Shown in pieces: positions 1,787-50,204 of a stretch of DNA of 64,000 bases (within the stretch, counting starts at the first letter, position 1; every line of letters starts with the position of its first letter). The DNA is from a virus, in IMG/VR virus record IMGVR_UViG_3300050343_000117, positions 1-64,000 of that record, one strand, 5' to 3'. The position numbers were made by a program, and so were the translations under genes. The notes beneath the pieces were generated by a model. The model was not told where the DNA came from. It saw only the letters and a list, made by a program, of their open reading frames with translations, and did no database searches.

Positions 1787-1790
1787 GGAC

Positions 1791-2003
1791 CTATCCGCGA
1801 TAGATCCCCGCTTCTTTCAATTTAGCAACTAGGACATCTTTCTTACGACGCTTATCTAATCTAACGCCGTGGAGTTTACCTAACCTATCTAATTCCGATT
1901 TAGTCATATCTTCGATCAGACGAAGATCCATGCAGTGCCTTTCAGTAACTACTCGATTTGGCGGATCTTGACGAAAAAGATTTAGAATATAATCGACCAA
2001 CAT
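1791..2003 (-). CDS. Small hypothetical protein with Rho-N/HeH-like C-terminus
   Basis: MTKSELDRLGKLHGVRLDKRRKKDVLVAKL. Confidence 0.5.
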   Translation of the reverse strand: MLVDYILNLFRQDPPNRVVTERHCMDLRLIEDMTKSELDRLGKLHGVRLDKRRKKDVLVAKLKEAGIYRG

Positions 2004-2022
2004 AATAATATAACCTATTCAA

Positions 2023-2920
2023 TTACTTGACTGGTGTTTTATCACCATTCGATAAATTATCTGCACCGCTACGAGCAGGGGATTGTTTCATGTCCTTACC
2101 GCCCGCTTTGAAAGTCTTATTATGACTATCTTCTTCGTTGTCTTCGATTTTCTTCTCAGACTTCTTATGCATCGCAATGACTTTCTTGTCATGTTCGGAT
2201 GAATGATCATCATGCTTTTCACCAGCAAGTGCACCCTTCTTAGGGTCAGCCGCTTCAAGCGAATGCGGACCACATCTCTTCAAATGCAGAACGGAACTCT
2301 ACACTTTCAATCTTAGAGATTTCTGCTTTCTTGTCGGCAGTTTTAGGATTCTTTTTGATATCAGAATCGCCATCTGCTTCTGGTTCTGCATCTGGTTCTT
2401 CTTCAGAGTCATCATCTTTCTTTTTAGGTGGGAAAGGTTTCTTCTTCTTGTCCTTTGGTTCTTCTTCGGACTCTTCTTCGTCTTTCTCTACTTCTTCTTT
2501 CTTCGCTGGTTTCTTACCACCATCGATCGCGTCATCCGTTGCGGCACGCTTCTTGTGTAGATATTCATCAGAAGAATCTACATCACCATCATTGTCGATG
2601 TCCTTGTCCTTACGATCAGCGAACTTCTTATCATTTGCTTTATCGTCTACCGGATCAAGTTTCTTCTCAGACACTTCTTCGAGTTCTACTTCTTCGAAAA
2701 TCTTACCCATCTGTTTAGCACTAACCGTTTTGAAATCACCAAATTCGTTAGTTAATTTGAAAGATAACTTACCTTTATCTTGGTTCATCTGGACAGTATA
2801 TCGTTTACCGTCCTTACCTTGAATTCCGCCTTTATCTCTGATCTTGGCTTCATCCACAGTTTTTTCTCCGGAGACCATTCCCAAATACGCCTCCATAATT
2901 TTATTGATATCTGACATCAT
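2023..2920 (-). CDS. Highly charged probable internal head protein (frameshift near 2270)
   Basis: ORFs 2255-2920 and 2023-2283 join; K/E/D-rich, with a DKDIDNDGDVDSSDEYL Ca-loop-like motif seen in T4-like virion proteins. Confidence 0.55.
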
Positions 2921-2934
2921 TAGTCTCCGTTAGT

Positions 2935-3243
2935 TTACGCGTCAAAAAACATTTTGACGACTACACCAGCAAAGACGGTCGCAGATAATGTAATAATATA
3001 TTGCATTACTTTAACGGTCTTTCCTTGCTCTTGGACCGAATCTTCTATATCATCCATACGCATGGAAAATCTATTCATTCGTTCAAAGTGTTGTGAGTTT
3101 GCCTTCTCTATGTTTATAAGTTTTTCTTCTGCACGAGCTAGATCGATCATTGCATCGGAAAGTTTGTCTATCTTGTCCTCGATTCTTGCGAGGCGTTGTT
3201 CTTCACGTTGCACATGCTCTTGTAATATGGTAGTATCTGCCAT
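2935..3243 (-). CDS. Coiled-coil protein with C-terminal transmembrane helix (possible lysis/holin-like)
   Basis: Heptad-rich N-terminus, hydrophobic C-terminus YIITLSATVFAGVVVKMFF; preceded by a late promoter. Confidence 0.5.
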   Translation of the reverse strand: MADTTILQEHVQREEQRLARIEDKIDKLSDAMIDLARAEEKLINIEKANSQHFERMNRFSMRMDDIEDSVQEQGKTVKVMQYIITLSATVFAGVVVKMFFDA

Positions 3244-3348
3244 TTTCGATTAGCCCATTAAGTGTTAATTATATAAGTCGTATTTGATATAATTAATATA
3301 ATTTAATGTAATTATTCTCTGTTGACTTATTAGTTAAGGTTACGTTCT

Positions 3349-3356
3349 TATTTATA
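3349..3356 (-). promoter_or_regulatory. T4-type late promoter TATAAATA
   Basis: Exact TATAAATA on the minus strand in an intergenic gap. Confidence 0.75.
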
Positions 3357-3364
3357 CGAATTAA

Positions 3365-3684
3365 TTACCAAGCTTTGCACGACCAGTATCGCGCTTTCCA
3401 CTTCGGGCCAGGATCAGAACAATTATGTCTGGCACTGAAAACTTTTTCGACGAGCAGGGTTGTCTCTTTTGATTTCCATATTTGGATCACCGAATGAAAC
3501 CTTGACGACATTACCCTTCTCGTTCTTTGTATATACGTAGAACTTCTTAGAACCACCACGTACAGGTTTGTTCAAAGTAACTTTTCTTACCTTGATACTC
3601 TGCTTCGGTCAGTTCTAACTCTTCGTCGAGAGACTTACACGCCTCACAACACCCTTCTTCTACGTACTGTTTAAACTTTTTCAT
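3365..3684 (-). CDS. Small basic Cys-containing probable head protein (frameshifted)
   Basis: MKKFKQYVEE...AEYQGKK...KVSFGDPNMEIKRDNPARR...ARHNCSDPGPKWKARYWSCKAW, assembled across indels. Confidence 0.65.
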
Positions 3685-4060
3685 TTTGCAAGTAATGCCT
3701 TTGCTTTGGCGTACGATCGTGGAAAGCGAATGTACGAGACTTACCGTCTTTTTCGTCCTTGACCACATAACCAGATTTGGTCATCTTAGTGATCTTCGCC
3801 ATTCCCATTCTCTTATGCGCCCATTCCTTTAGTTGCGTATACGGTAGTTTTCGTAGTCAATTCGACTCCTTCTTCAAGTTCAATGAACCTTTATCTCTGC
3901 GCCTTTACTCTTTACTGCTTTTTTGAATTGCACATTTAAGTTTTTGCATCACCACGAGTTCCTCTGATCTTGAAGGAGCCTCTGAATCCGTGACAAGACC
4001 CCCATGCCTTTAGTTGCAAGCTTTGTACCAATTTCAGATGGTTTTGCGGTACTGTTTTCA

Positions 4061-4561
4061 TCAAGTCGAACTTAATATTAGTTTCTGAACTGATTCCTCT
4101 AACCCTTCACGCATAAGTTTACCACCTTTCACTCTGAATCCGTTATCTTTTAGGATTTTAGTAATAGTGGTCCTCTTTACCAAGTCGTCCATATCCTTGA
4201 GCAACTTAGTCAAACCCATGAATGCTTTATCCTGTACACTTAAAGAGGAATTCATAAACATAACACGTGCGAATGCAGCGGCCTTCTCGAACTCAATACC
4301 CTTTTTCTTATGTTTCAAGAGTTCATTAGATATCTTTTCAAAATCTGCGGCTTCATCAAGTTCAACTGACTCCTTTACAGGTTTGCCGTTTTTAGAAATG
4401 ATACCCTTGTATCCTTCCTTTTCCTTATCGGCAAGGAATTTCTTGGCGTATGTCAATAGGTGAAACGGCATCGTACGAATAGGTCCTTTCTTTGACATTG
4501 CGTACTTCACCACAAACTTATCTTTATTTGCGGATTCTCTTAGTTCAAAAAAATCTTTCAC
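4061..4561 (-). CDS. Probable internal head protein; likely continues to about 3690 via frameshifts
   Basis: Starts MKDFFELRES; contains ESVELDEA and EGLEES prohead-protease-type spacers. Confidence 0.55.
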   Translation of the reverse strand: MKDFFELRESANKDKFVVKYAMSKKGPIRTMPFHLLTYAKKFLADKEKEGYKGIISKNGKPVKESVELDEAADFEKISNELLKHKKKGIEFEKAAAFARVMFMNSSLSVQDKAFMGLTKLLKDMDDLVKRTTITKILKDNGFRVKGGKLMREGLEESVQKLILSST

Positions 4562-4562
4562 T

Positions 4563-4745
4563 TTAACTTCCTCTTGATGCGCCTCGAAATACCTTAGATG
4601 GAGCGCGGTTTGTATTATTTAATTTGAGACTGGGGCCTTGCGACCCCGTCATGTTAAACTTATTATTTTCAGAACTAGTAGACTGCAACCTTTCTCGTTT
4701 CTCTTGAGACATCTTTTTGTTGCGAGGTTTCTTAGTCTTACTCAT
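4563..4745 (-). CDS. Small basic hypothetical protein
   Basis: 60-aa K/R-rich ORF with an AAGGA RBS. Confidence 0.5.
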   Translation of the reverse strand: MSKTKKPRNKKMSQEKRERLQSTSSENNKFNMTGSQGPSLKLNNTNRAPSKVFRGASRGS

Positions 4746-4815
4746 ATTTATTCCTTATTTTAGACGGTCTTGTGCAGACCGCCTTGCTTCTCTTATTTCA
4801 GTAAACCTTTTCATG

Positions 4816-6991
4816 TTATCCTACTGCGACCGATTCACCGAACGTAGCATATTCACCAGCATCAAACGCGGTTAGTTTGGTTGGTTGCGCAGATAGATCA
4901 CTGGCATCGTAGACATAGACTGAACCACTTCGATCTCCATTGTCGTCGTCCTCTTCGGCACCAACAACAATAGTATTACGGAAAGCATCAAGGGAACCTC
5001 CGAATTTATCACCCGAAGCACCATCAAACGCAGATAGTTTAGTCGGTTGAGCAGATAGATCATTTGCATCATAAACGTATACTGAGCCAGGTCCAGGCCA
5101 CCCCGCATCACCTTCATACCAAGCACCCACAATAATCTTATCAGAGGTGGTAGCAACCGTAATCCCGAAGTTATCATCCGAAGTACCATCAAACGCGGTT
5201 AGTTTGGTTGGTTGCGCAGATAGATCATTTGCATCATAAACGTATACTGAATCCGGAAGTTATCTCCGATGTTGTCGATACGAGTATCTCATTCCAACCA
5301 TGACCTAGATCGGTATACCCAGAAAAGCACCATTGTTACTGTTAACACCAGAGGAACTTACAAAGATGTAGTTACCTGCAACTTCAATATCTCCAGTTCC
5401 GAAGTTGTCATTTCTTGGGCCTGTTACTTCTTTGATAAGAGACCCGTCTTCTTCATTAAAGATAAAGAATCTGCCGACAGATGTGTCCAGAGCTTCACCA
5501 ACGACAATTCTTCCAGAACCGTATGCAACATTACGACCAAATTGACCACCACCACCAGCGGTAGGTCTTTCGATAGACATCACTTCAGTTCCATCTTCTT
5601 CGAACAATTGGACACGTCCAGCGTTATTGTATGCACTAGAACCAACAAGGAATCTTGAATGATTTTCTTGCGTATCGACAGAGGAACCAAATTGATCACC
5701 CGCCGATCCATTTAATCGAGTAATTAAATCTGCCTGTATCGTCTGATAGGTTGAAAATACCAGTGCGACATCGGTTCTAGTACCTACGTAAAGTTTACCT
5801 TCACATTCTATTAACCATGCACCCACACCGTCTATTGAAGGACTATTGTTTTCTGCAATGAAACTGTAAACATGAGTCGTTGTTGTCCAGTGATTATTTG
5901 CACCATATGGCTACCATAGAATATAAGACCGCACCGTTTGCACCATTCGCATTAGCATTGTTGTGTGTTGATGAATCTGTGATTGTGAGTTATCTACTAT
6001 GACATAATCGTCAGTTACTATAAGTCTATTGCTTTGACCACCAAAGTCATTATTTGGTGGGTAAGGATAGTTGGATCCTAGAGACGAGTCTGTCCAGTAA
6101 TCCGTCATTCCCGATGTTAGTGCAAGGGCGCCAGGTCCATATATGGTGTTTGTTAGATTGATTTTACCATTATATGGAGAGTCTGGAGAAGAGTTTACGT
6201 GGCCTGGTCCTGCTGGACCATAACCAAATGCAACATATTCACCATCTGAAGTAGTGAAAGCACCGTATTCTGCGCCTCTGTAACCGTCGCCGATTTCTTG
6301 GTTTTGTTGGCCAGTTGGTAAACCATCAGCACCTAACGCGAATCTGTATACTTTACCTGAGTTTGGATAACCTCCTTGGTCATCATATGGCACACCTACC
6401 CAAAGACTACGTGGGTAAAGATCAGTTGGTTCCGTCAGTAACAGTCTTGGATTCTACCGAATGTCAAGAGATCCACCAGAGTCATTATCGACAGCAAGAA
6501 CCTGTTGAACATATACATATTCATAATATCTTGTAGCAAGTCGATTTCCGTCTAAAGATGCATTGTACTTCTTGCTGACCGAAGTTAGCGTCTGTTACGT
6601 TTGGTCCGTATAGTGTGCGTACTAAACTGCCAGTCGTTCTATCAAAAACTAAAATACGACCACTGTTATTGCCACCGCCAGTATAGTGCAGGTTACCTAC
6701 GAATATATTATCACCGGCCATAAAGATAGAAGAACCTACCATTTGACCACTCGGAGTAGGAAGAGTTGTGTTGTTACCATCCTGATTCATGATGAACGCT
6801 TGACCACCGAAGCTATTGCCGAACATTGCAGTAGTGGCTACAGTCCAAGTGCCTTCAGCTACTGGTGATGTAGATGATGTCGAGCCACTAGAAGATGATT
6901 CTGGTCCTACGTATGGTGGGTTGTCTGCGTCTACACCGGCAATTACTTGACCGGCATGAAACACCGCACCCGCTAAAATTTGATTTGCCAT
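4816..6991 (-). CDS. FG-GAP/integrin-alpha-like beta-propeller repeat protein (several frameshifts)
   Basis: ORFs 6521-6991, 5911-6393, 5305-5826 and 4816-5130 carry repeated xFGxxV...IVVGA...GSVYVY blades. Confidence 0.7.
4860..5227. repeat. Coding tandem repeats of FG-GAP blades
   Basis: 41-nt exact repeat at 4860-4900 and 5187-5227, plus a diverged copy near 5022-5062. Confidence 0.8.
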
Positions 6992-7013
6992 TTGTTCTAA
7001 ATTCCTTTAAGTT

Positions 7014-7286
7014 TTATGCTAAGTCTTTGTCATGGTTCAGGCCGCCTTTCTTCTTCTTGACGATGAAAGCGTTAACCCTTGCCATTCCCCATTGTTGTGG
7101 TGTGGTGCCTGGGCGGTGACCCGTTTTCCATGCCGCAACACCTCTATTATATACTTTACGCAAAGTGTCCGATGATATACCAGACTTCTTTGACTTCGCT
7201 GCGATACCATCTGGACCTTCATCAAGGTCTAGGGTATCATACATGCCGTATCTTTTTTCTTCAAGATATTTTTTAAATTTTATCAT
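7014..7286 (-). CDS. Small basic probable head protein (DUF5824-like)
   Basis: MIKFKKYLEE start; KSGISSDTLRKVYNRGVAAWKTGHRPGTTPQQWGMARVNAF. Confidence 0.6.
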   Translation of the reverse strand: MIKFKKYLEEKRYGMYDTLDLDEGPDGIAAKSKKSGISSDTLRKVYNRGVAAWKTGHRPGTTPQQWGMARVNAFIVKKKKGGLNHDKDLA

Positions 7287-8987
7287 GCCAAATCTCCTAA
7301 TCATTTTGCAAGTACTTTACATCATATCCAGTCCAAACTTACGAATTGCATTCAGCAGCATGCAAATTCATTGCAGACCTTCCATCTTATGGACTACCTT
7401 CTAATTCTTTCTTGATGTATTGCGCAACTTTAGTGTATTTATTCTTATTGATAGTCTTGGCTCCGATCTTATGCATTAAGTCTGGTACCCAGTTTTCTAG
7501 ACAACTCATTTTCTTCTGCAACACAATTAGGGACCATCTTGTTCCCTTTCTTTCTTCATACCAACTTCTTTGTACCCATCCCAACAATCTTCGTCGTACA
7601 TGTCCTTGAATGACTTGGTGTACTTGGATGGTTTAGTCTTGGCAGTTGTATCGCCAGGCGCTGGTTTGTATGCAGACTCATCATCGTCTGCCTTCTTACC
7701 ATGTTTCTTGAAGTGTGCATCACGTTTGACCTTGGTCGACTTTTCTAGTCCCTTATGGTAACGCGATGGTTGAGTACCTTCACGATCCTTTATATCTGGG
7801 TCCTGTGACTCGTACTTGATTTCAGGACTCGATGTCTTGAAGTCTTTCTTACGCATGATAGTTTTGTTCACTACTTCGAACTCACCGTTCTTATAGTTCA
7901 CCACAACAGGGAGATTTAGATCGGACTGCATATCTTTCAATACTGCTTCCGCATCTCCGTGTTTCTTTACGTCTTTGCCCTTATTCTTTGCGATCTTCTT
8001 AAACAACCGTTGGAGTTCTGTAACCTTGATAGCAGGGTCATTTCTCTTATCGTTCATACGGTCTGCGAAGTGTCGTGTAAATTCGATGTCGATGTCGAAC
8101 TTCTTCAACAAACGGTCACCGAACTTTTCTAAATCATTGAGTTGCTTTTGGGTCACGTCTTCGGAGATCAACTCCACAGACTCTAACCACTTGCGCATCT
8201 TCTTGCCATCGTTAGTCTCAACGATAACATAGTTCGCGCCTAGGATCGGATATGAGTAGCGACCTCTTCACTTTCTTTGATCACTACCATATCACCGACT
8301 TCGAACAGTTCGCCTTGCACGAACTTCTCTCGTGCTTCGGACACTGTCGCTAGTTCTATATGACTACGGAATTCGCTGGCTTCCTTCAGTCCCATACCCT
8401 TACGCACGTCGTTGAACAACTTACGTGTGTCTGGGTTAGACATTGACTTAGGAACCCCTTGCGAAAATGCAACGAAATCATTCTTTGATGCGTTCTCTCG
8501 TTGTTTAGAGGCAGACATGCCCTCAACTCCAACAGAATCCGGATCTCTCTTACCGGCGGATACTATTTTGATAGATTTGAAGTTGTAGAAACCGTGTCTG
8601 GCCTTTGTCCCATTGTACTTGTTCAACAGGACATCGAATTCTGTAATTCTGTCGTCACCTACAACCATAGTTACTGACTTATAACCTTGGTCATACAGTG
8701 CGACCATGGCGTTGATAGCGGTCTTGACCGACTTATCCACCATGATATTCCGTGCATGTTTCGGAAACATCTTACGTGTGTGTTTGATTTTGTCGGAGTA
8801 CGATAGCGGATTCTTCTTTGCGTCCTGTGACTGTGACGCAAATACTTTATAGTCTGCTTTCCCAGACTTCATGTGCTAACGCATCCATTACCTTGCCGTG
8901 ACCCATCGTAGGTGGATTCATACGACCAAACGTGAAATAGACTTCGCGTTCTTCTTCGACAAGGTATTGACTAAAATTCTTAATCAC
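7283..8987 (-). CDS. Multidomain protein: N-terminal HxGH (cytidylyltransferase-like) nucleotidyltransferase plus C-terminal virion-type modules (frameshifted)
   Basis: GTG at 8987 gives MIKNFSQYLVEE...FTFGRMNPPTMGHGKV, joining ORF 8240-8872 (KNPLSY, MVVGDDR, SAGKRDPDS, GMSASKQR) and ORF 7527-8198 (FTRHFADRMNDKRN, EDCWDGYKEVGMK). Confidence 0.7.
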
Positions 8988-9358
8988 TTTTTATCGCCCG
9001 CCTTTATTTTGTTTCTTTTACGTTCCATTTCTTGCTTACGAACGACTTTGATGAGTTTTCGGGCGGTGACGATCTAATTTTGACTGCATTGCCGGTTTGT
9101 CCAGTCGCTTCTCGATTTCTCTCTTACGAGCGACTGTCATCTCGGACTTATCTTGTCCTTTGGTAATCTTTGATACCAATGCGTTACGTGCTTGTTTACG
9201 TGCACGTTTCTTCAAGTGACATCCATTGATGCAGTTTTTCTTTCTGCACGTTTACGCGCCATGGCGATTCGTGCTTTGTTCTTTTTCATTCGCATCGCGA
9301 GTTTACGACGTTGTGTCATGTCGAGTACTTCCGATACCATGTCTTTAAATGACAGCAT
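8984..9358 (-). CDS. Very basic probable internal head protein (frameshifted; absent from the ORF track)
   Basis: MLSFKDMVSEVLDMTQRRKLAMRMKKNKARIAMARKRA, with a GAGG RBS. Confidence 0.55.
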
Positions 9359-9387
9359 GTCATTTTCCTCTATTGGTTTATTCCATA

Positions 9388-10607
9388 TTATCTACGGGCT
9401 GAATCCCAACCCTTTAATATATCGGATGAAAAGTTGTTGTATGAAAATTCCATACGGTCAACAAGTTTCACCGCGTCACCACCAAGTGTATCAATTGCAA
9501 CGTATCCTTCTTCACCAGTCACTTTGTAACCATTAGAAGTTTTCACGAAAGTATCAATCGATTTAAGTTTGTCCAAACTATTTATAAGTTTTAATTTGAC
9601 TAATACAATCAATTTTTGCAATTCAAACATCTTTATCTAGATTTGCCTTGTTTGTAGTAGAGAAAAAGTCCATCTCATCCTTCATTTCTGTTTCCAAGTG
9701 TCCTTACCACGTTGAGATTTCTTACTTGCAATCTCTTTTTTGTAGTAAGCTTGTCTATTACTTATCAATCCTCTAACATGCTTTCTTGAGTCTGGGAGTA
9801 AGGTACCTGCACGAACAAACGAGTTGTTGTAAGTCTCAATCGCCTGTGCAAGGTTCTGGTTATCTTCTAGCGCCTTCAGTGTTGTAGCAGATGTCTGTTT
9901 GAATAGACGACCGATTTGTGTCAGTAGATCATTGACTGATTTGGTTTCGCGCTCACTCATCGTCGCATTAGTCACGTCGGTCAACATCGCATCTTGTGAC
10001 CATACGTTTACAGAATTGCGAAACTTCGACACGTCCACACCGTATGATGCCTCGCATCGACTCAAAGTATTCCAGTGTATGTGGTGTGCCATACGATACC
10101 GATCTTAGCACTACGTACTTCTTTTGCTTGGTCGTAGGGTACTGCATATGCAATGGTGTTTGGATGAAACACACTGTACTTCTGACCATCGATGGTCTTG
10201 GTAGAGACATCACCCTTACCAAACAGGAAGTCCCCTTGGACAACACCCGTGATACCTAGGTCTGGTAGATACTTGAGAGCATCCTTCAACTTGGAGTTCA
10301 GATCGCCCGACGTATCATCGTCGATATCTGCGTCGGTCTTGTAGACCTTCGGGTTCTTGTTGAAGATACCTTTCTTCGCCACAAAGAACTCTCCGTCACT
10401 TGGATCTATACCGCAAAAGATTGCGGGCGCACCGTCCCATTTGACAGATACATTACCCGCACCCTTTCCCGCTAACATGTCTCGCAAACCACGTAACGCA
10501 TTGATAGCTTCACGTGTACCAGAAACTCCACCGTACAGGACTTTGTCCTCGATGTGAGTCATATGCGTATTCTTTTGCTCTGTAATGAAGTTTGCGAAGT
10601 TTTCCAT
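9388..10607 (-). CDS. DUF6267-like protein with ATP-dependent ligase/nucleotidyltransferase motifs (two frameshifts)
   Basis: MENFANFITEQKNTHMTHIED; SVKWDGAPA (motif I), VVQGDFLF (III), EEGYVA (IV), AVKLVDR (V). Confidence 0.65.
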
Positions 10608-11895
10608 TATGTACTCAGTGAATTATATTTGACTGCTAAATTGAAAAATTGTCCCAGTTTCTTTTGACCCGCGTTACCCGCTTTATTAGTTCGTATGGAC
10701 ATCTCCATAGTCACATTATCGTCTTTCGACTTTAGTTCAATGAACCAATTCTGTTTTGATGTGGTAGATGGATATGCACGAACGAACTTTACCATAGGCA
10801 AAAATACACCTAGTTCATCATTCGAAGTGATCTCTTCAAAACCGTCCTTTACCGCTTTGATAACTTTGGTAGGAACGTCGGGTGCGTCCCTCAATATTTC
10901 TGTCCGGATATAGTCTAGAGTCTTATCCTTATCTGTATTGAAAAGGTCAATGACAGCCTTACGACATGTCTCCAAGTGTTTGTCGTACAGTTCCTCATAT
11001 TTGGCACTGTCATCACGATTCAACTTTACTAGTAGTCCAGAAGTAACTCGTTTCTTGGATTTGTCATATGCACCACTAGGTGGCATACCTTGTATCTTAG
11101 AATAGACATCGGTGTGCAGTTGTCTGCGAAGGACACTTACATTACGTTGTTTCTTGAAGGACGTGAAGATAGGATTGACGTAGGTGTTGAGTTTAGGTTC
11201 TTTGGTCTTCTTACCACCCGCTTTGAGCGATACTCCCAACATTGCACCATCGGTAAACTCAATAAAGATATCGCCGGGATGGTTCTTAGGGACACCCGTA
11301 GGTTTTGCACGATATCCCCAATAGACCTGTTTGATTGATTTGTTCTTGTTTTCTTCTTGCAGATACTTGTAGACGCCCATCGCGTTCAACATCTTCTCAG
11401 TGAACTTGGAAGATTCAGACGCCTTCTGGATGGTATCGATTGCCGGCTTTGAGCATCGGACGGTTGAACACAGGTTAGAGTTTTAGGGTCCTGTTTCAAT
11501 AGGTGATCATAGAAATCTTGTACACTGGTCGTCATCGTGTAACCCGTTTCCCACGCGATGGCAGGGAACAGTTCTGTAATAGATGCGTTTAGAGTGGTCT
11601 CACCGATACCACCGGACTTAGGTTTTACCAGAATAACTACTTTGGTATCGAAACCAGAATCAATGAATATAGGGTCAACTGACTGCCCAGACTTCTCACG
11701 AACTTCTGCCTTGACACCCGCTTGGTTTAGATCACGAGCGATCTCATCCCTGTCCGTGAGACGGTCTTCTGACCGAACAACAAATACTGTGGTCTTACTG
11801 TTTTCGGATTTTTTCTCAACAGGAAGGTCCCCGAATACGTCCGGAAGATCAGACGTATTGACCTCTTCTGATAAGAACGACTTAAATGATAACAT
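10607..11895 (-). CDS. Probable head protein with PD-(D/E)xK-like nuclease motif (frameshift near 11450)
   Basis: MLSFKSFLSEE start; ASITELFP...HPGDIFIEF...GVSLKAG. Confidence 0.55.
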
Positions 11896-11941
11896 TGACC
11901 AAATTCCCTAGTAAGTTGACGTGGTTAGTGTACGATAACAC

Positions 11942-11949
11942 TATTTATA
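11942..11949 (-). promoter_or_regulatory. Late promoter TATAAATA heading the head-payload operon
   Basis: Exact consensus about 46 nt upstream of ATG 11895. Confidence 0.75.
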
Positions 11950-12664
11950 TGTCAAGGGAAGTTGAACTATTTTCTTCGTTATATTGAGCGATAGTTTCGC
12001 GGAGAGGACGCACCCAATTATCACGATGTTCGATAAACACCTGTGGTTCATGGTTGTCAACAGAGATAATCGTCACAAGTTGGGTGATAGGCATTCCAGT
12101 GCGTTCTTCCCACATAATTGCATAGGCAGACTCTTGCATGAAGTAGTTCTTAATCCAGTCAAGGCGTTTAGGTTTCATCGAAGTCTTGTAGTCAATGATA
12201 GACAATTTGCCATCGAAGACACCTACGCAATCCACACGACCAGCAACACCCAAATGGGTAGAGTACAGTGGTGCTTCTTGAGCATGGACAGTAGTCAGAC
12301 GTTCGTCAAGAATTGGTTTAATCTTTAGAAAAGAATCTATTAGATCCGGTGTACGTTTGGCCATCTTCGTCTCCCCATTGTCGGGGTTGATGGCAATATA
12401 CTTGTCATAGTCTGGATCGTTGTTGACATACTGTTCACAGATTTCGTGAACCGCAGTACCACGCGTAGATGCGCGATAGGAGACACGGTTTGCTTCTTTC
12501 TCACCGACACGTGCTCGCCATTTAGCAATGGAGTCACGAGACAGTATAGAGAGTACAGTAGTGATAGAAGGTAAGGTGATACCTTCGGGAGTTTCGTATT
12601 GACGACCAGTGTCCGTAGTTACGGCAGTCATCTCATTCAATTCCACAGGAACATGTTCAAACAT
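11945..12664 (-). CDS. PD-(D/E)xK (Cas4/RecB-like) exonuclease
   Basis: PSITTVLS, RGTAVHEICE, EAPLYS, AGRVDC, IIDYKTS, YFMQESAYA. Confidence 0.85.
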   Translation of the reverse strand: MFEHVPVELNEMTAVTTDTGRQYETPEGITLPSITTVLSILSRDSIAKWRARVGEKEANRVSYRASTRGTAVHEICEQYVNNDPDYDKYIAINPDNGETKMAKRTPDLIDSFLKIKPILDERLTTVHAQEAPLYSTHLGVAGRVDCVGVFDGKLSIIDYKTSMKPKRLDWIKNYFMQESAYAIMWEERTGMPITQLVTIISVDNHEPQVFIEHRDNWVRPLRETIAQYNEENSSTSLDI

Positions 12665-12692
12665 AATATAACCTAATCAATTTAATACTAGT

Positions 12693-12721
12693 ATTATACG
12701 TTATTAAAACGTATCTGTCAA
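12693..12721 (-). promoter_or_regulatory. Sigma70-type promoter
   Basis: TTGACA-17nt-TATAAT upstream of the exonuclease. Confidence 0.8.
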
Positions 12722-12760
12722 TAGTAAATCGTGACTATTTTTACCATACTAGTCATATAA

Positions 12761-12930
12761 GAATCCCCACAAGTACAGGGCTCCGAAGGGTACTTTATGT
12801 GTCGGTGAACCGTAACTAACTGCTTGGCATTTTCACATGCACGTTTTGAGAGATCGCAGTTTTAAGTTAGTGCGCGATGGTTGGCGCATTGTTCATCTCG
12901 TGTACCGAGCCCTGTACTGTGTGGGGAAAC
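12761..12930 (-). ncRNA. 170-nt rod-like structured RNA, 6S-RNA-like candidate
   Basis: Terminal arms CCCCACAcAGUACAGGGCUC / GAGCCCUGUACU-UGUGGGG; inner stems GGUAC/GUACC, UGAAC/GUUCA, ACUAACU/AGUUAGU; starts immediately after the tRNA-Ala CCA. Confidence 0.6.
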
Positions 12931-13006
12931 TGGTGGAGTTAGAGGGAATCGAACCCACGACCTTCTGGATGCAAACCAGACGCTCTCCCTACTGAGCTAT
13001 AACCCC
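12931..13006 (-). tRNA. tRNA-Ala(TGC)
   Basis: Cloverleaf, anticodon loop TT-TGC-AT, GTTCGA T-loop, encoded CCA. Confidence 0.95.
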
Positions 13007-13146
13007 AAAATCTTACTTTTCCTTATCTTTACCGAAGATTTTATCCCAGTTATCTCTACCTTGTTTTGATAACGTCTTGGACTGTATTGCGTCTCCGGTG
13101 ATGTCGTTTTTACTTACCATTTTGATGTCATTTATGATCAGTTTAT

Positions 13147-13222
13147 TGGAGCGGGTAGTCGGGTTTGAACCGACCGCCTCAACCTTGGCAAGGTTGCGCT
13201 CTACCAAATGAGCTATACCCGC
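13147..13222 (-). tRNA. tRNA-Gly(GCC)
   Basis: Cloverleaf, loop TT-GCC-AA, encoded CCA. Confidence 0.95.
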
Positions 13223-13229
13223 AATACAT

Positions 13230-14639
13230 TTAGTCGCATCCTAAGTCACGTCGTGATTCTTCATCATTATTAGTGACACACAAACCACTAGGTAATTCTT
13301 CCGGTACGTATCGCATCAACTCAGGATCGTACAGACTTGTCTCTAAGAACGTAACTAGGTTAGCAATTTCTTCTTCAGTCAAGTCAAGTGGTGTGAACCT
13401 ATAGTCTAGATCAACAATCTCTACTTGAGGATGTTGAGGTGATGCGGCAACTTTGTATCGTACTACATCTTCTACACTAGAGAACGACGCACCATGACCG
13501 AATACAGTAGTATCTATAAGGTTGTAAAGTGGTGGTACTTTGAACGCGAACTTATCCATATCGTCACCCGTAAAACCACCACGTCCCGCTTTGGTCGCTT
13601 CGTTTACATCACCAACTACGTCATCCCATATATCTAGGTCATGAAATCCAAGTGTCATAAACATCTCACTGGCAAGAGAACCGACAGGAGATGAAAGAGC
13701 GGGACCGTTATGACAACCGGCACACTGACCTTTACCGAAGAATACTTTCGCACCTTCTACTTCTTCTAGGGTCAATGCCTCTTCGTCACCTCGTAGGAAG
13801 TCTTGAAATGGTGCTTGGTTTGCGAGAATGGTTCTCTCGTATGCGGCAATTGCAAAAGATGCCGCTTCCAACATATCGTGCGGTTGTGACGTACCATATG
13901 CCGCTTCGAACATCATCTGATATTTCTCGTTGGTGGTTAGGATAGAACCCTCTTCCACATTCATACGGTGAACACCAAGTCCCGCAACTGCCTGTGTTTC
14001 TAGACCGGCGAGACTACGTAGGTTAGCCTCTTTGGGAGTACCTTCTGTAAAGTGACGATCCGGATCAATACCAACATTGACGATACCACCAATGACGTTA
14101 CCGAACTGACCATTCCACAACATGACTTCTTGGTAGGCAGTGTTCAGTACTGTAGGTGATGTGACGGGTTGTACATCGATGTCTTCGGGATTGACACCCT
14201 CAGCAATCATACGATGATCAAAACCGACACCACCTTCGCCAATACCTTGACGAATACCGGACTTGAATCCGTTCTGTGCGTTGTGACATGATGCACAAGA
14301 GAAAGTATCTTCCATACCCGCGATGTTGCCGTCGGTGATACCAGTCTCATGATAGATCAACTGTCCCAGTGCTACCTTCTCTGCGGTGATTGGGTTACTG
14401 GGGTCTTGGGGAATGTTTAGGAAGTCGTCACTCTCTGGGAGAATATATCCTTCATAGGAACCTGTTGGTGAGGTTCTGTCCATAATCTCACGGAGTTCAC
14501 CAATGGAGATTTCAAGTGCTGTCGGTTCTGGTACTGCCGGAGGCGCCACCGTCACTGGTTGTGGTGCGGAATCCGAAGTGCCACCCGAACAGGCGCTAAG
14601 GACGGTCGTGCATAATACTACAGATAGTAGGTTTTTCAT
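13230..14639 (-). CDS. Di-haem cytochrome c peroxidase (CcpA/MauG family) lipoprotein
   Basis: Lipobox LSA-C; NPITAEKVALGQLIY; two CxxCH (CASCH, CAGCH); PTVLN, WNGQF, FKVPPLYNL. Confidence 0.9.
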   Translation of the reverse strand: MKNLLSVVLCTTVLSACSGGTSDSAPQPVTVAPPAVPEPTALEISIGELREIMDRTSPTGSYEGYILPESDDFLNIPQDPSNPITAEKVALGQLIYHETGITDGNIAGMEDTFSCASCHNAQNGFKSGIRQGIGEGGVGFDHRMIAEGVNPEDIDVQPVTSPTVLNTAYQEVMLWNGQFGNVIGGIVNVGIDPDRHFTEGTPKEANLRSLAGLETQAVAGLGVHRMNVEEGSILTTNEKYQMMFEAAYGTSQPHDMLEAASFAIAAYERTILANQAPFQDFLRGDEEALTLEEVEGAKVFFGKGQCAGCHNGPALSSPVGSLASEMFMTLGFHDLDIWDDVVGDVNEATKAGRGGFTGDDMDKFAFKVPPLYNLIDTTVFGHGASFSSVEDVVRYKVAASPQHPQVEIVDLDYRFTPLDLTEEEIANLVTFLETSLYDPELMRYVPEELPSGLCVTNNDEESRRDLGCD

Positions 14640-14682
14640 AATATAAGAGCCTCTCAAATACTCTTTTTCAAGTTAGAAAGGA

Positions 14683-14712
14683 ATTATACTATAAAATATG
14701 AGGACTTGTCAA
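14683..14712 (-). promoter_or_regulatory. Sigma70-type promoter of the peroxidase gene
   Basis: TTGACA-18nt-TATAAT. Confidence 0.7.
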
Positions 14713-14722
14713 GGGTAAATGG

Positions 14723-15409
14723 TTATTTATTTTTAACTCGTTTGGTCGCCTGCTTCTCTGCATCAATCCACTTCTGTGCCTTCTTAGAGACAGGTTTGTC
14801 AGTGAACTTCTTAGCATCACGGAATGCAGTTAGAGTTTCTTTCTCGTAGTCTTTACCTTCAGAGTTATCTACAACCAAGAAGTTAGGTTTACCAAACATA
14901 CGTTGGAACTTACCGATATTGCGTTGTACTGCTTTCCAATACTCAGTAACACCTTTCTCGCCTAGGGTACGAGCACGTTTTGCATCACGGCTGATAGCAG
15001 TATCAAGGTCTGTGTTTACGAAAATCATTGCGACATCGTAACCCATGGCCTTTACTTTCTTTGCCTGTTCAGCAATTTTATCTGGGTCTTTACCAGTACC
15101 ATCTACTACGAGACCAAGACGACCTTTCAGATAACGCTCTTCCCTTTTCCCTGTAAGCTTCTTTGCCTTACCACGGAGTTCTTGTCCTTTCGGAGAGAAG
15201 ATGTTGTCCGGAGTCATATCCATATCAACCTTCTTCATAGCAGCTTCGAATGCGTCATCTGAGTTGACAACCTTGTAACCCATAGAAGTCAGACCTGTCT
15301 TACCGACGATGAATGACTTACCAGAACCTGGCCCACCCGCAAGAAAGATTGCCTTGAAGATTGCTGGATCGTTTACGCCTTCGTCTAAGAATGTTTTAAA
15401 AGATTTCAT
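14723..15409 (-). CDS. P-loop kinase (AAA_33 / zeta-toxin / PNK-like)
   Basis: MKSFKTFLDE start; Walker A GGPGSGKS, VNSDD, LVVDGT, lid RDAKRAR. Confidence 0.8.
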   Translation of the reverse strand: MKSFKTFLDEGVNDPAIFKAIFLAGGPGSGKSFIVGKTGLTSMGYKVVNSDDAFEAAMKKVDMDMTPDNIFSPKGQELRGKAKKLTGKREERYLKGRLGLVVDGTGKDPDKIAEQAKKVKAMGYDVAMIFVNTDLDTAISRDAKRARTLGEKGVTEYWKAVQRNIGKFQRMFGKPNFLVVDNSEGKDYEKETLTAFRDAKKFTDKPVSKKAQKWIDAEKQATKRVKNK

Positions 15410-15440
15410 TGTAATAGTATCTGTTGATGGTAGTTGTATG

Positions 15441-15448
15441 TATTTATA
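15441..15448 (-). promoter_or_regulatory. Late promoter TATAAATA for the kinase gene
   Basis: Exact consensus about 31 nt upstream of ATG 15409. Confidence 0.75.
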
Positions 15449-15456
15449 CAAAAAAA

Positions 15457-15547
15457 TGGCCGAGGGATAGGGATTCGAACCCTAGATACGCTATTAACGT
15501 ATGCCAGTTTTCAAGACTGGTGCATTCAACCGCTCTGCCATCCCTCG
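15457..15547 (-). tRNA. tRNA-Ser(TGA)
   Basis: Long variable arm, loop CT-TGA-AA, CCA. Confidence 0.95.
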
Positions 15548-15564
15548 TTAATTTTTATACTTTC

Positions 15565-15641
<77 letters not shown>

Positions 15642-15650
15642 GTAGAAAGT

Positions 15651-15725
15651 TGGCTGGGGTGGAAGGACTCGAACCTACGAATGACGGGATCAAAACCCGT
15701 TGCCTTACCACTTGGCGACACCCCA
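15651..15725 (-). tRNA. tRNA-Gln(TTG)
   Basis: Loop TT-TTG-AT, CCA. Confidence 0.95.
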
Positions 15726-15792
15726 AACCTGTTTGCTCTACTGGGCACCACTCATTCAGTTATTTAGTAAGGGGAATGAGACCCTTATTCCT

Positions 15793-15869
15793 TGGTCGGG
15801 AATGTAGGATTTGAACCTACGACCCTTCGCTCCCAAAGCGAATGCGCTACCAGACTGCGCTAATCCCCG
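15793..15869 (-). tRNA. tRNA-Pro(TGG)
   Basis: Loop TT-TGG-GA, CCA. Confidence 0.95.
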
Positions 15870-15874
15870 TACAA

Positions 15875-15948
15875 TAAAGGAGCAGTTTTCCACATACTCA
15901 GGTGACGGGCGTAACGACCAGAGTGAGTTTAGAGTCATCTCAAGACTA
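15875..15948 (-). ncRNA. Candidate structured RNA in tRNA spacer (manA-motif-like)
   Basis: GUCUUGAGAUGACUCUAAACUCACUCUGGUCG... resembles, from recall, the 5' part of phage manA RNAs; hairpin GAGUA...UGCUC. Confidence 0.35.
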
Positions 15949-15950
15949 AA

Positions 15951-16034
15951 TGGTGGGGAGAGGTGGATTCGAACCACCGAAGCTCTCGCGTCAGATTTAC
16001 AGTCTGATCCATTTGACCGCTCTGGAACCTCCCC
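15951..16034 (-). tRNA. tRNA-Tyr(GTA)
   Basis: Loop CT-GTA-AA, long variable arm, CCA. Confidence 0.95.
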
Positions 16035-16039
16035 GATAT

Positions 16040-16350: not shown

Positions 16351-16355
16351 AATAA

Positions 16356-46941: not shown

Positions 46942-48273
46942 TTACGATGTTACCATCAAGTTGTCTACGCGCATGATGCGGTAGTACGTGTTCTTACCAG
47001 CAGAACTCTGTACACCTGCTCCACCGTTAGCATCTGTAACGAATGGGTTTGCAGCCATGCCGTAACGAGTCTTGAAACCAATCTTAGGTTGGAAATCATT
47101 CTCGCCAACTGCCTTGACCATCTGTAGTGGTACGTATGGGCAGTAGAATACACCAGCGTCATAAGCGTTAGAACCCTTATATCCGACAGTAATGTAATCG
47201 ATTGATGCATATGGATCGATGTAAACTTTCATCTTACCGTTTAGAGTACCAGCAAAAGTATTACCAGTATCATCTACAGAAAGACCAGCGCCTACTTGAT
47301 AGTCCAACTGACCAGAAGCAGCAAGTGCAGTAGCAACGTCTGAAGAACAGATTACGATGTTACCCTTACCACGACGAGTTGACTTAGCAATCTCGTTCGC
47401 TTCACGATCTAATTGAATTACTAGACCTTTGAACTTCTCTGCTGACCATCGTCCGTCTGCATCAGCAGTTAGATCGAATACGCCTTTAGCAGCGATTGAT
47501 GCTTGTTGTGCACCTAGAACAGCTTGAGTGTTTACTGTACGAATCACTTCACGGTTGATTTCCGCTAGGATTTCAGTTGAAAGAATGTTCGCTAGTTCTG
47601 TTTCTGCGTCAAGACCGTGGATTGCTTTCAAGTCTTGTGCAAGTTCTAGAGAGTACTCTGCCTTCAATGCACGTGACTTAGCAACAACAGATTGCTTCTC
47701 GATTGAGAAACCCATTTCTGCGAAGTCTGGACCAGTGTTACCTAGAGATTCAGCAACAGAAGTGTTCATTGGTCGACCAGCAGCATCTAGTTCACGAGTT
47801 GATGCAGGGTCTAGGTCAGCTGGATTGAATCCAGACATACCTGATGAATCACTAGTCTGTGATGAACCAGTAGAACCAGAGAATGCTGAGTTTGGTTCGT
47901 TTAGACCTAGAGCTTCGTCACCAATCTGTGTATCGTAGTGCGACTTCATAGCAAAGATAAGACCAGTAGGTCCTGACATTGGCTGTACACCACATACGTC
48001 ATATGCCATTAGGTTTGGCATCGCACGACGTACTAGGGAAATCATTACTGGGTCCCAGTTACCGATTGGTGCAGCACCACCGTTCTGTGCGTTAGTTGGA
48101 GTTTCAGTTAGGAAACCAGCAGATGCAGCACGCTCTTCCATCATTGCTTTTTCTTGGTTTTCTAGGATTGCAGCAGTTACCGCTTTGCGGTGATGATCTT
48201 GGATCTTACCAGCAGATTCTTCATTTAGTACTGGTGACCACTTCTCGATCAATTGATCGTATGAATTGTTCAT
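46942..48273 (-). CDS. 23: Major capsid protein gp23
   Basis: KWSPVL, LVRRAMPNLMAYDVCGVQPMSGPTGLIFAM, SRALKAEYS.ELAQDLKAIHGLDAE, YCPYVPL, FKTRYG. Confidence 0.97.
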   Translation of the reverse strand: MNNSYDQLIEKWSPVLNEESAGKIQDHHRKAVTAAILENQEKAMMEERAASAGFLTETPTNAQNGGAAPIGNWDPVMISLVRRAMPNLMAYDVCGVQPMSGPTGLIFAMKSHYDTQIGDEALGLNEPNSAFSGSTGSSQTSDSSGMSGFNPADLDPASTRELDAAGRPMNTSVAESLGNTGPDFAEMGFSIEKQSVVAKSRALKAEYSLELAQDLKAIHGLDAETELANILSTEILAEINREVIRTVNTQAVLGAQQASIAAKGVFDLTADADGRWSAEKFKGLVIQLDREANEIAKSTRRGKGNIVICSSDVATALAASGQLDYQVGAGLSVDDTGNTFAGTLNGKMKVYIDPYASIDYITVGYKGSNAYDAGVFYCPYVPLQMVKAVGENDFQPKIGFKTRYGMAANPFVTDANGGAGVQSSAGKNTYYRIMRVDNLMVTS

Positions 48274-48285: not shown

Positions 48286-49335
48286 TTATTTCTTAGAGGT
48301 TTTACGCAGAGCAGTAATGTAACCTTCCATCATAGAAGATACTTCAACTTCTTCTTCAGCTTCTTCTGAAACTGATTCTTCGATTTGCTCTGGGATTTCT
48401 TTTGAGAAGTATGACTCTTTGACAGTGTTTACTTTAGTTGTGAATGTTTCTTCACTATCAAAGTCTACGCTTTCTAGAAGGTCTTTTAACTTCTCCGCTT
48501 GAGTGTCTGCTAGGTCACGAGTTGCTTCAGCGATGATTGACTCACGCTTGTAAGTTTCTAGTTCTCCAGCAAGTGAAATTGCGTCACCAGTAGTAGCGTT
48601 CAAACGCTCTTCTAATTCTTCTACTTGTGATGCTAGATCGTCAACTAGGTCTACCTTAGACTCTGGGACTTCAATGTAAGACTCTACAAATACGTCTTTC
48701 ATTTTTGCCATGAACCCTTCAGCGATTTCGGTACGTAGACCGGATTGGATCGCTAACTTGTTCTCTTCCATCCAAGATTCAACAACATAGTTTAGGTAAG
48801 AATCGACTTTACCGACTAGGTCAGTTTTAATCGAATCGACTTCTTCAGCAAGTTCTTCAGTGTATTGCTCTTCAAGACGCGAAACTTCTTCAGACAGCTT
48901 TGACTTAACTGCTGCTTCAAAAATTACCGATGTCTTTTCCTTGAACTCTTCTGATAGAGTTGCTTCACCTTCAACGATTGCAGCTAGTTCAGACTGAGTC
49001 TCAACTTGTTCTGCAACTAAGTCTTCTGCGTCAACACCTTCACAGACTTTGTCGTATGCTGCCATTAGATCGCTCTTCTTCATTTTAGAAGCGGTCATAT
49101 ACATTGCATTCAACATGCCTGCTTTAGTTTTCGGCTTAGGCGGGGTTGCCTTAGAAGTTGCGTCCGCTGCTTTGTCTACAGATGCAATTGATTCTGGTTC
49201 AGAAACTTCCTGACCATCACCTTTTGCGCCTTTAGCCGACGGAGCTTGTGCTTCTTCGAGAGTTTCCTCCACGATTTCGTTAGACTCAATCTCAGTATCG
49301 CGGATTTCACTTTCTACTTGATTTAAATCAGTCAT
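48286..49335 (-). CDS. 22: Prohead core scaffold gp22
   Basis: LSEEFKEK..IFEAAV, VDSYLNYVVE; acidic coiled coil. Confidence 0.9.
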   Translation of the reverse strand: MTDLNQVESEIRDTEIESNEIVEETLEEAQAPSAKGAKGDGQEVSEPESIASVDKAADATSKATPPKPKTKAGMLNAMYMTASKMKKSDLMAAYDKVCEGVDAEDLVAEQVETQSELAAIVEGEATLSEEFKEKTSVIFEAAVKSKLSEEVSRLEEQYTEELAEEVDSIKTDLVGKVDSYLNYVVESWMEENKLAIQSGLRTEIAEGFMAKMKDVFVESYIEVPESKVDLVDDLASQVEELEERLNATTGDAISLAGELETYKRESIIAEATRDLADTQAEKLKDLLESVDFDSEETFTTKVNTVKESYFSKEIPEQIEESVSEEAEEEVEVSSMMEGYITALRKTSKK

Positions 49336-49345: not shown

Positions 49346-50005
49346 TTATGTTTTAGATTTGATTAACGAGAGGAAATTCTTAAACTCACGAATTTGCACT
49401 TCTGGACGATGTGCAATCGGCGCTTGCTTGATTTCAGTCTCTATCTCTTCAATGACTTGAGGTTGAAGTATACCATTATTCCATACCCAGTCAACACCTT
49501 CCATAATCCCATTAACGAAAGCTTCAGGTGCACTAGGGTCCTGTACAATATCTACAGTATTCAGAATAAAGTCTTCTTTGACGTACATAATGCCGCCTTT
49601 ACTCTCAAGACTTCCCATACCACGAGTTGACACTCCTAATTGAACACCACCCTCTAAGAGACCTTTTACGATCTTTCCCATAGGGGTATCTAATATTTGT
49701 GCCTTTCCGACCACATCATTTCCCTCAAGTTTGAGGTCTGTGATGAGATGCGAAACTTTATCCAAGTTAACGGTTGGTCCTTCAGGGTGATTGAGTTCCC
49801 CTACAGCACGTTTCTTGCTAACTTGGTCTTCAACGTATTTATTTACCGCATTCTCCATAATGGCCTTTGGGTAAATACGTCCGTTACGATTCTTTTTGTC
49901 TGCTTGCGCAAATACACCTTCAATGACGAAATTTTTCTCACCATTCTCTTTAGCTTCGACGATACACTGAACGTCGTTTTCTACGTATTCGCTAATCAGT
50001 TTCAT
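49346..50005 (-). CDS. 21: Prohead protease gp21
   Basis: NRNGRIYP, GELNHP, GVSTRGMGSL, DIVQDPSAP. Confidence 0.95.
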   Translation of the reverse strand: MKLISEYVENDVQCIVEAKENGEKNFVIEGVFAQADKKNRNGRIYPKAIMENAVNKYVEDQVSKKRAVGELNHPEGPTVNLDKVSHLITDLKLEGNDVVGKAQILDTPMGKIVKGLLEGGVQLGVSTRGMGSLESKGGIMYVKEDFILNTVDIVQDPSAPEAFVNGIMEGVDWVWNNGILQPQVIEEIETEIKQAPIAHRPEVQIREFKNFLSLIKSKT

Positions 50006-50006: not shown

Positions 50007-50204
50007 TTATTTTCCTAAGTCTTTGAGGACTTGTTTCGCGGTTGACTCCGCTTCTTTTTGTGACTTAAACGTATCGACAGAATCACCATCGATAGTTAGG
50101 TGAAATCCTTTCGCAGTTTTTGTGATAACAACAGGATACTTGGACATCTTCTTGTTGAAGACTACCTTGTCCTTTGATTCACGAATTTGTTGAAAAGTTT
50201 TCAC
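50007..50204 (-). CDS. Small prohead core protein (gp68 position)
   Basis: MKTFQQIRES start; late promoters at 50224-50231 and 50240-50247. Confidence 0.6.
   Translation of the reverse strand: MKTFQQIRESKDKVVFNKKMSKYPVVITKTAKGFHLTIDGDSVDTFKSQKEAESTAKQVLKDLGK

Follow-up and report, generated by a model that had tools for sequence, protein, structure and literature searches.

A probable T4-type capsid targeting tag at the N-termini of unrelated proteins of an uncultured marine phage

Introduction

The internal proteins IPI, IPII and IPIII of phage T4 are unrelated basic proteins which share a 10-residue N-terminal peptide, the capsid targeting sequence (CTS), and which are processed by the gp21-type protease (Mullaney and Black 1996, as related in parts of PMC9026906 and PMC9958956). 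In this article we examine a comparable peptide in an uncultured, marine, T4-like phage. The stretch analysed, called the window throughout, comprises positions 1 to 64,000 of IMG/VR record IMGVR_UViG_3300050343_000117 (137,471 bp in full, estimated completeness 83%), and its genes lie on the minus strand. Among isolates, Phage C48C1 (Kyanoviridae, 156 kb) is the closest, with about 80% nucleotide identity to the window across 31% of the region at 2-16 kb. Nine genes of the window encode products starting with a similar N-terminal peptide, which we refer to as the tag.

Several properties of the T4 system are relevant for this comparison. Amber-suppressor scanning of the IPIII tag identified residues 4 and 7 as needed for targeting and residues 8 and 10 as needed for processing, as described in the CTS part of PMC9026906. 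The same part states that the T-even proteins bearing a CTS are basic, and reports that T4 CTS fusions reach the host (PMC9026906). According to a passage of PMC9958956, most T4 core proteins are degraded once assembly is done.

The locus differs from the T4 internal protein genes in scale and in cargo. It comprises nine tagged genes (ten in C48C1 at a matrix score of at least 8.3 bits) compared with three internal proteins in T4. Its cargo includes predicted enzymes of 230-470 residues whereas that of T4 consists of small proteins only. Position 4 is Phe, as in T4 IPI, instead of Tyr. Furthermore, the lineage is Kyanoviridae-like and that of T4 is Straboviridae, and packaging of the window's tagged proteins is a prediction. 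The T4 ADP-ribosyltransferase Alt provides a second point of comparison, being an enzyme of the prohead core which gp21 trims and which is delivered together with the DNA (parts of PMC9958956 and PMC9026906); in contrast, the predicted enzymes of the window bear the IP-type tag itself. The giant phages phiKZ and SPN3US also contain many head-internal proteins in which a prohead protease related to that of T4 cleaves after Glu, but the part of PMC9026906 devoted to them describes an S/A-x-E cut motif and long propeptides in place of a 10-residue T4-type tag.

We consider it probable that the tag is equivalent in function to the T4 CTS, with which it is very probably homologous, and that it marks head cargo which is co-packaged, clipped and delivered. 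Packaging of the tagged proteins into the head is well supported by the analogy with T4, by the statistics of the tag and by the virion proteome of a relative. By the same analogy the proteins would be cleaved and injected, and we infer their docking partner, copy number and function in the host. Our literature search found no paper describing such a tag system, bioRxiv preprint supplements lying outside the search. Among the papers listed for the capsid targeting sequence none concerned marine phages, and a link to cyanophages occurred in a reference list only; nothing was found which joins internal proteins with Kyanoviridae, nothing relevant on C48C1, and Petrov 2010 did not contain the terms sought.

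The shared N-terminal tag

An earlier note on this DNA had claimed that unrelated open reading frames (ORFs) of the region start with one pattern. The nine N-termini are in place, as listed here together with the properties of each gene (scores refer to the matrix presented below).

3423..3684, minus strand: gene 1, MKKFKQYVEE (start at 3684), 25.9 bits; split by a frameshift, phrog_7595 on the second piece; intact in C48C1 (105 aa)
4061..4561, minus strand: gene 2, MKDFFELRES (GTG start at 4561), 16.4 bits; 166 aa, lysine-rich
7014..7286, minus strand: gene 3, MIKFKKYLEE (start at 7286), 22.4 bits; 90 aa, DUF5824 (PF19141, E 1.2e-19)
7527..8987, minus strand: gene 4, MIKNFSQYLVEE (GTG start at 8987); cytidyltransferase-like nucleotidyltransferase with C-terminal domains, at least three ORF pieces; 469 aa in C48C1
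9036..9358, minus strand: gene 5, MLSFKDMVSE (start at 9358); small and very basic, two pieces; 123 aa and pI 11.9 in C48C1
9388..10607, minus strand: gene 6, MENFANFITE (start at 10607); DUF6267 (PF19782, E 5.6e-64), three pieces; about 407 aa in relatives
10607..11895, minus strand: gene 7, MLSFKSFLSEE (start at 11895), 20.6 bits; phrog_2496, two pieces; first gene of the block
14723..15409, minus strand: gene 8, MKSFKTFLDE (start at 15409), 22.2 bits; P-loop kinase of 228 aa (AAA_33 / Zeta_toxin), intact
50007..50204, minus strand: gene 9, MKTFQQIRES (GTG start at 50204), 19.1 bits; 65 aa, in the head operon; C48C1 orthologue MRTFKELREA

The tag is an amphipathic peptide of about 10 residues with the pattern M-x-x-F-x-x-[F/Y/hydrophobic]-[L/I/V]-x-E. 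Residue 4 is F in all nine cases (one tag has an extra residue) and residue 7 is F, Y, M, L or I in all nine. The final [L/I/V]-x-E occupies positions 8-10 in seven tags, offset by one in the gene starting at 8987, and the other two carry [L/I]-R-E at positions 7-9.

A position-specific matrix was derived from residues 2-10 of the nine tags and used to scan six genomes, where a candidate start is any ATG, GTG or TTG with at least 40 open codons downstream. In the whole 137,471-bp record (3,326 candidate starts) the nine tags take the top nine ranks with 16.4-25.9 bits, and the next best start reaches 8.2. None of 2,000 candidates in the reversed-genome control scores 10 bits or more. In an internal control, 13 of 48,542 nine-mers within long ORFs reach 10 bits, and some of the nine tags are among these. 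Seven of the nine remain in the top nine when each is left out in turn. A profile search of T4, C48C1, S-PM2 and HTVC008M with a 14-column alignment of the tags returned five sites, all in C48C1; in T4 no candidates passed the first filter of the tool.

Behind the tag, the proteins appear unrelated. After removal of the first 12 residues, BLASTP among the products of different tagged genes gave no match at E <= 0.01, and Pfam DUF5824 spans different parts of two tagged products. A nucleotide cassette or a mobile promoter-leader was considered as the source of the resemblance and ruled out: the upstream sequence is not shared and the tag codons vary. We therefore place the conservation at the peptide level. 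The observation of the earlier note is thus confirmed, and the profile scan which it had proposed sets the nine starts apart from all others and finds the tag again in related loci.

Relationship to the T4 capsid targeting sequence

The matrix built from this phage alone was applied to the 3,030 candidate starts of T4, where it places ipI (11.4 bits), ipIII (10.5 bits) and ipII (10.5 bits) at ranks 3, 4 and 5. In addition, the positions conserved in the window (F4, aromatic or hydrophobic 7, L/I/V 8, E 9/10) coincide with the functional positions of the CTS given above. Together with the virion proteome of S-SM1, discussed below, these results strongly support the earlier reading of the N-termini as a T4-type CTS which marks a packaged set.

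T4 gene 61.1 (NC_000866, 18966-19130, minus strand) encodes a protein of 54 aa annotated as hypothetical. Its likeness to the tagged proteins is confined to the first 10-18 residues.

Head operon and presumed cleavage site

The head operon of the phage follows the T4 order: terminase (54296-56283), sheath and tube, portal (50537-52041), a gp67-like gene, gene 9, gp21, gp22 and gp23. Gene 9 sits between the gp67-like gene and gp21, which is the place of gene 68 in T4. The components relevant for the tag are as follows.

50256-50534, minus strand: gp67-like acidic gene
49346..50005, minus strand: gp21-type prohead protease (Peptidase_S77, E 8.4e-40; phrog_207, E 7.4e-78), the presumed tag-cleaving enzyme
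48286..49335, minus strand: gp22-type scaffold (prohead core), assigned by position and composition; the C48C1 gene in this position has a head scaffolding annotation; the presumed docking structure
46942..48273, minus strand: gp23-type major capsid protein with GFLTE/T at residues 53-58 (cut between E and T), compared with SFLTE/A in T4 gp23

T4 gp23 is cleaved after Glu65. The tag ends in [L/I/V]-x-E, a type of cut site to which the maturation site FLTE of the capsid protein also belongs.

From these elements the following route can be proposed. Freshly synthesised proteins would be docked by the first half of the tag to the prohead core built on gp22, so that the basic products of the eight genes at 3.4-15.4 kb and of the one head-operon gene would be co-assembled into the prohead. 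The last three residues would constitute a site for the gp21 protease, of the type at which the capsid protein is trimmed. The cargo, clipped after Glu 9-11, would be retained in the DNA-filled head and most likely exits with the DNA at infection, like the T4 internal proteins. Complex prediction with the gp22 scaffold and the 90-aa tagged DUF5824 protein scored 0.00 in two runs, performed without controls, and has no bearing on this route either way.

The gp21 protease itself starts with MKLISEYVEN, which is weakly tag-like (hydrophobic residue at 4, Y7, V8, E9; 4.3 bits). This recalls a suggestion in the T4 literature that the propeptides of gp21 target it to the core.

Tagged proteins in virions of S-SM1

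Purified virions of cyanophage S-SM1 contain 41 proteins by mass spectrometry (Sullivan 2010, PMC3037559, Table S8, of which a subset of rows is covered here). Peptide counts were 25 for the T4-GC190 'cytidylyltransferase' (SSM1_190), 18 for the portal and 22 for gp22; SSM1_191 and SSM1_192 yielded 12 and 10, and two further virion proteins derive from the same gp41-gp61 gene cluster (PMC3037559). Our matrix scan of S-SM1 gives two of 4,501 starts at 10 bits or more, namely SSM1_190 (MKKFSAFLNE) and SSM1_192 (MLSFKELQEK), and both proteins belong to the published virion proteome. The window cytidyltransferase (start at 8987) shares 42% identity with SSM1_190 over 203 residues (E 2e-49).

SSM1_190 and SSM1_192 thus parallel the proteins of the window in their tagged N-termini and in their location in the corresponding gene cluster, gene 4 being homologous to T4-GC190. 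S-SM1 differs in having just two tagged genes and an untagged DUF6267, which does not appear in the covered rows of Table S8. Sullivan 2010 lists both tagged proteins as structural, and the covered parts of that paper do not mention a targeting tag (PMC3037559). If the tag directs packaging, it would explain the 2010 puzzle of a 'cytidylyltransferase' in purified cyanophage virions. We also considered the window gene at 2255-2920 as a homologue of SSM1_191; BLASTP lends this no support, the two having no more than a short acidic motif in common.

One could argue that the common N-terminus serves a purpose other than packaging, for instance an efficient translation start or a helix which binds another partner or the membrane, and that the proteins never enter the head. 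The AT-rich and lysine-rich 5′ end of the tag agrees with such a role, as does the lack of late-promoter enrichment in front of tagged genes (see 'Promoters'). However, F4, F/Y7, L8 and E10 are strict at the peptide level with free choice of codons, hence the tag is not a translation signal. The recovery of the T4 internal proteins by the matrix, the tagged homologues in S-SM1 virions and the ending of the tag in the capsid protein's own type of cut site also speak for packaging, and we regard a different purpose as quite improbable.

Portability of the tag in related phages

A set of 80 related IMG/VR loci was collected with a DUF6267 fragment (978,977 bases, 25,898 candidate starts). In this set 326 starts score 10 bits or more. 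The coding strand carries 325 of them and the opposite strand one, and almost all are found in the first 35 codons of an ORF. The tag is borne by 27 cargo clusters, the largest of which joins cytidyltransferase, DUF5824 and further proteins by single linkage. As an independent sample, the kinase can be followed by whole-protein homology. Its family comprises at least 7,636 database proteins at E <= 1e-5 (8,000 scored), and among the best 120 homologues 118 carry the tag at 10 bits or more in the first 12 residues. The 33 distinct kinase tags show F4 in all 33, F/Y7 in 32 and L8 in 31, with positions 2, 3, 5, 6 and 9 variable; DUF6267 displays the same conservation pattern in 79 of the 80 loci.

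Comparison with C48C1 reveals exchanges of cargo. Its ten genes scoring at least 8.3 bits lie in the syntenic block and the head operon, and two of the true starts were missed by its annotation. At one syntenic position MKDFFELRE is common to a 166-aa protein of the window and a 424-aa protein of C48C1, the cargo being unrelated. At another, MKSFKTFLDEG on the window kinase corresponds to MMKFKTYLNEG on an unrelated 203-aa protein. More distant phages display the tag to different degrees. Melnitz-3, a Methylophilales phage, carries it on DUF6267, the cytidyltransferase, a basic protein and others, and a perfect version (MTTFKEYLLE, 11.9 bits) begins the kinase of RsoM2USA, a jumbo phage of Ralstonia. 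HTVC008M has degenerate versions only, two Straboviridae kinases have looser, shifted versions, and the DUF6267 proteins of S-PM2 and S-SM1 are untagged.

The tag is portable: in related phages it occurs on two dozen or more unrelated families of cargo, and cargo is swapped behind an unchanged tag. A broader proposal, to which we give somewhat less than an even chance, is that the CTS is an ancient and general address label of T4-like phages, which the marine lineage may have turned into a plug-in cargo system for enzymes acting at DNA entry. Any gene recombined behind the tag would then become virion cargo, in a fast-changing library of which the 27 clusters in 80 loci would be a sample. The ligase-like protein, the nucleotidyltransferase, the kinase and others could serve nucleic-acid repair, for example, or counter host defences, and the injected proteome of uncultured phages could be read straight from sequence.

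The narrower reading, a CTS equivalent marking head cargo, has implications of its own. It would mean that coliphages and ocean phages have kept one T4 head-loading tag in common, and would provide a simple sequence rule for predicting capsid-borne proteins of uncultured T4-like phages. Capsid-borne proteins are the first phage factors met by the host, and in T4 both IPI and, as complementation indicates, IPIII act against host defences; for both reasons the tagged set would represent a shortlist of anti-defence or takeover candidates, in a phage group which is among the most abundant in the sea. Finally, the tag could be used to bring foreign proteins into the heads of marine phages, as done with T4.

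Nature and charge of the cargo

The best-defined cargo is the kinase of gene 8, which matches AAA_33 with 43.9 bits (cut-off 27) and Zeta_toxin with 42.3 bits (cut-off 22.3) in Pfam and has a Walker A loop, GGPGSGKS, at residues 25-32. Gene 4 matches phrog_395 (E 1.7e-51) and phrog_3041. We looked for a (T/H)xGH motif and found the nucleotide-binding-type motif FGRMNPPTMGHG; TxGH is what we take to be the defining motif of the cytidylyltransferase-like family. Pfam gave no match for this protein at E <= 0.01 and a PDB sequence search was empty. For gene 2 (4061..4561), Pfam and PHROGs searches gave no family match.

DUF6267 was examined for the lysine of ligase motif I (KxDG): K-W-D is invariant and G near-invariant across relatives. 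When the N-terminal domain was modelled alone (pLDDT 67.5), the nine best VIA-align chains were all ligases, with weak scores; the best were 1xdn_A (Z 5.5, root-mean-square deviation 3.5, 108 aligned) and 5cot_A (Z 5.0). The full-length model (pLDDT 67.7) gave generic helical-bundle matches only. Foldseek searches with the DUF6267 models found nothing at E <= 0.001, the PDB sequence search nothing at E < 0.2, and the ESM Atlas unnamed viral clusters alone. These models weakly suggest a ligase-like N-terminal domain resembling the adenylation domain of ATP-dependent RNA/DNA ligases. The earlier note had counted several enzymes among the tagged proteins. By family this holds for the kinase (Pfam) and the cytidyltransferase (PHROGs), and for DUF6267 at a weak fold level; enzyme activity is predicted from the sequence.

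The cargo is characteristically basic. The median isoelectric point (pI) of the mature protein is at least 8.8 in 24 of the 27 cargo clusters. In C48C1 the median pI is 9.6 for the 9 tagged ORFs versus 5.1 for the 170 untagged ones (Mann-Whitney p = 3e-6), 15% of the latter having a pI above 8.5.

This charge could also reflect a more limited role, in which the tag loads proteins into the prohead core but the cargo acts there, in core building, DNA condensation or charge neutralisation, or is degraded, and no enzyme is delivered. All cargo is basic, as expected of a DNA-binding filler, gene 9 has the place of a core gene in the head operon, and the fold match of DUF6267 is weak; the degradation of most T4 core proteins after assembly, recorded in PMC9958956 as cited above, would be a precedent. 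Against this stand the persistence of the S-SM1 cytidyltransferase in mature virions with more peptide counts than the portal (25 versus 18, covered rows of Table S8, PMC3037559), the catalytic-type motifs kept across many relatives in the kinase (P-loop) and in the nucleotidyltransferase, and the delivery of T4 CTS fusions into the host (CTS part of PMC9026906). A role restricted to the core is in our view unlikely, and we favour delivery of the tagged cargo.

Promoters

Promoters of the tagged genes were analysed through TATAAATA, the T4-type late promoter core. Genome-wide, it occurs 25 times on the minus strand, compared with 6 for the backwards control. It precedes three of the nine tagged genes.

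11927..11955, minus strand: promoter region at the head of the block, with TATAAATA at 11942-11949 overlapping a sigma-70-like TTGACA-17-TACACT (11955-11927)
15441..15448, minus strand: TATAAATA before the kinase gene, late-promoter-like
50224-50231 and 50240-50247, minus strand: two TATAAATA before gene 9, late-promoter-like

In relatives, TATAAATA is regular before the kinase (8/9) and before the first gene of the block (5/5, 3/3, 3/3). By this distribution the tagged block could be an operon transcribed from a late promoter in front of its first gene. In the covered rows of Chen and Zeng 2020, the cyanophage cytidylyltransferase is given no expression class. Among sigma-70-like sites on the minus strand of 1-11900, none is better than 9 of 12. 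Untagged neighbours lie behind perfect 12/12 sigma-70 promoters, at 12721-12693 for an exonuclease and at 14712-14683 (TTGACA-18-TATAAT) for a cytochrome c peroxidase.

The statements of the earlier note on promoters stand in part. It had placed the tagged genes behind late promoters, and the sites at 11942 and 15441 are real; they mark cluster heads only, with no enrichment before tagged genes. It had also found no sigma-70 promoter in 1-11900, and indeed nothing exceeds 9/12 there, but a sigma-70-like site lies just beyond, at 11955-11927. Its further claim, that the cargo is delivered ahead of any transcription, is speculative.

At the head of the block, TTGACA abuts TATAAATA (TTGACATATAAATAG). 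The same arrangement is present upstream of the C48C1 gene at 60526.

Contrary observations and contig quality

Several results weigh against the proposed packaging and delivery of the tagged proteins. In the leave-one-out analysis two weak tags drop out of the top nine, MKDFFELRES to rank 27 and MENFANFITE to rank 42; the two have stronger orthologues (MLDFKNFITE in C48C1, MINFSKYITE in Melnitz-3, MKDFFELREA in C48C1). In T4 the matrix also picks out sequences other than established cargo: rank 1 is taken by gp61.1 (MKTFKEFIKE, 17.2 bits), and rank 2 lies inside the uvsW frame. One of the Melnitz-3 matches may fall inside a longer P-loop gene. Concerning virions, T4-GC190 was undetected in the older S-PM2 and Syn9 proteomes according to the covered rows of Table S8 (PMC3037559), and three S-SM1 virion proteins of the same cluster carry no tag. 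The tag is therefore not the sole route into the virion, and membership of the gene cluster might itself be correlated with packaging. As for timing, TATAAATA lies within 100 nt upstream of 36 of 323 tagged genes (11%) and of 83 of 972 untagged genes (8.5%) in the 80 loci (p = 0.18). Because a sigma-70-like promoter also stands before the first gene of the block, the proteins may be made early and act in the producing cell. Lastly, frameshifts relative to C48C1 split five of the nine tagged genes (those starting at 3684, 8987, 9358, 10607 and 11895).

These frameshifts are what a block of decaying pseudogenes would show, in which case this genome would make no payload. Yet essential genes of the contig are frameshifted in the same way relative to C48C1, the portal (50537-52041) being broken into four ORFs, the sheath into two (52912-54211), and the tail tube being split as well. 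Since these genes are broken alike, we read the frameshifts of the window as probable assembly errors. Among relatives, moreover, 60 of 63 tagged DUF6267 copies measure at least 400 aa. Decay of the block thus appears very improbable, and the tagged genes probably encode a head payload. Homopolymer errors were considered as the cause of the frameshifts and rejected, the junction sequences having no obvious homopolymer runs.

Other features of the region

In the middle of the tagged block lies a large untagged gene (4816-6991, minus strand), which frameshifts break into several pieces. It contains FG-GAP-like repeats (PF14312, weak) and is longer in the window (about 725 codons) than in C48C1 (420 aa).

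Twelve tRNA genes are located at 12931-20550 and 37473-37548, most of them in two groups on either side of the tagged kinase gene. The ipI gene of T4 adjoins a tRNA cluster too. Between tRNA genes of the window, at 13230-14657 on the minus strand, lies a gene for a 475-aa lipoprotein-like di-haem cytochrome c peroxidase of the MauG family (PF03150, E 4.2e-22). Such an auxiliary gene is unusual in a phage; C48C1 has it too (473 aa).

At the end of the tagged block, a 102-aa protein (2935-3243, minus strand) combines a coiled coil with a C-terminal hydrophobic segment and gives weak matches to XhlA and to the 'hemolysin' phrog_937. It is preceded by a late-type TATAAATA at 3349-3356 and may be a lysis-related membrane protein.

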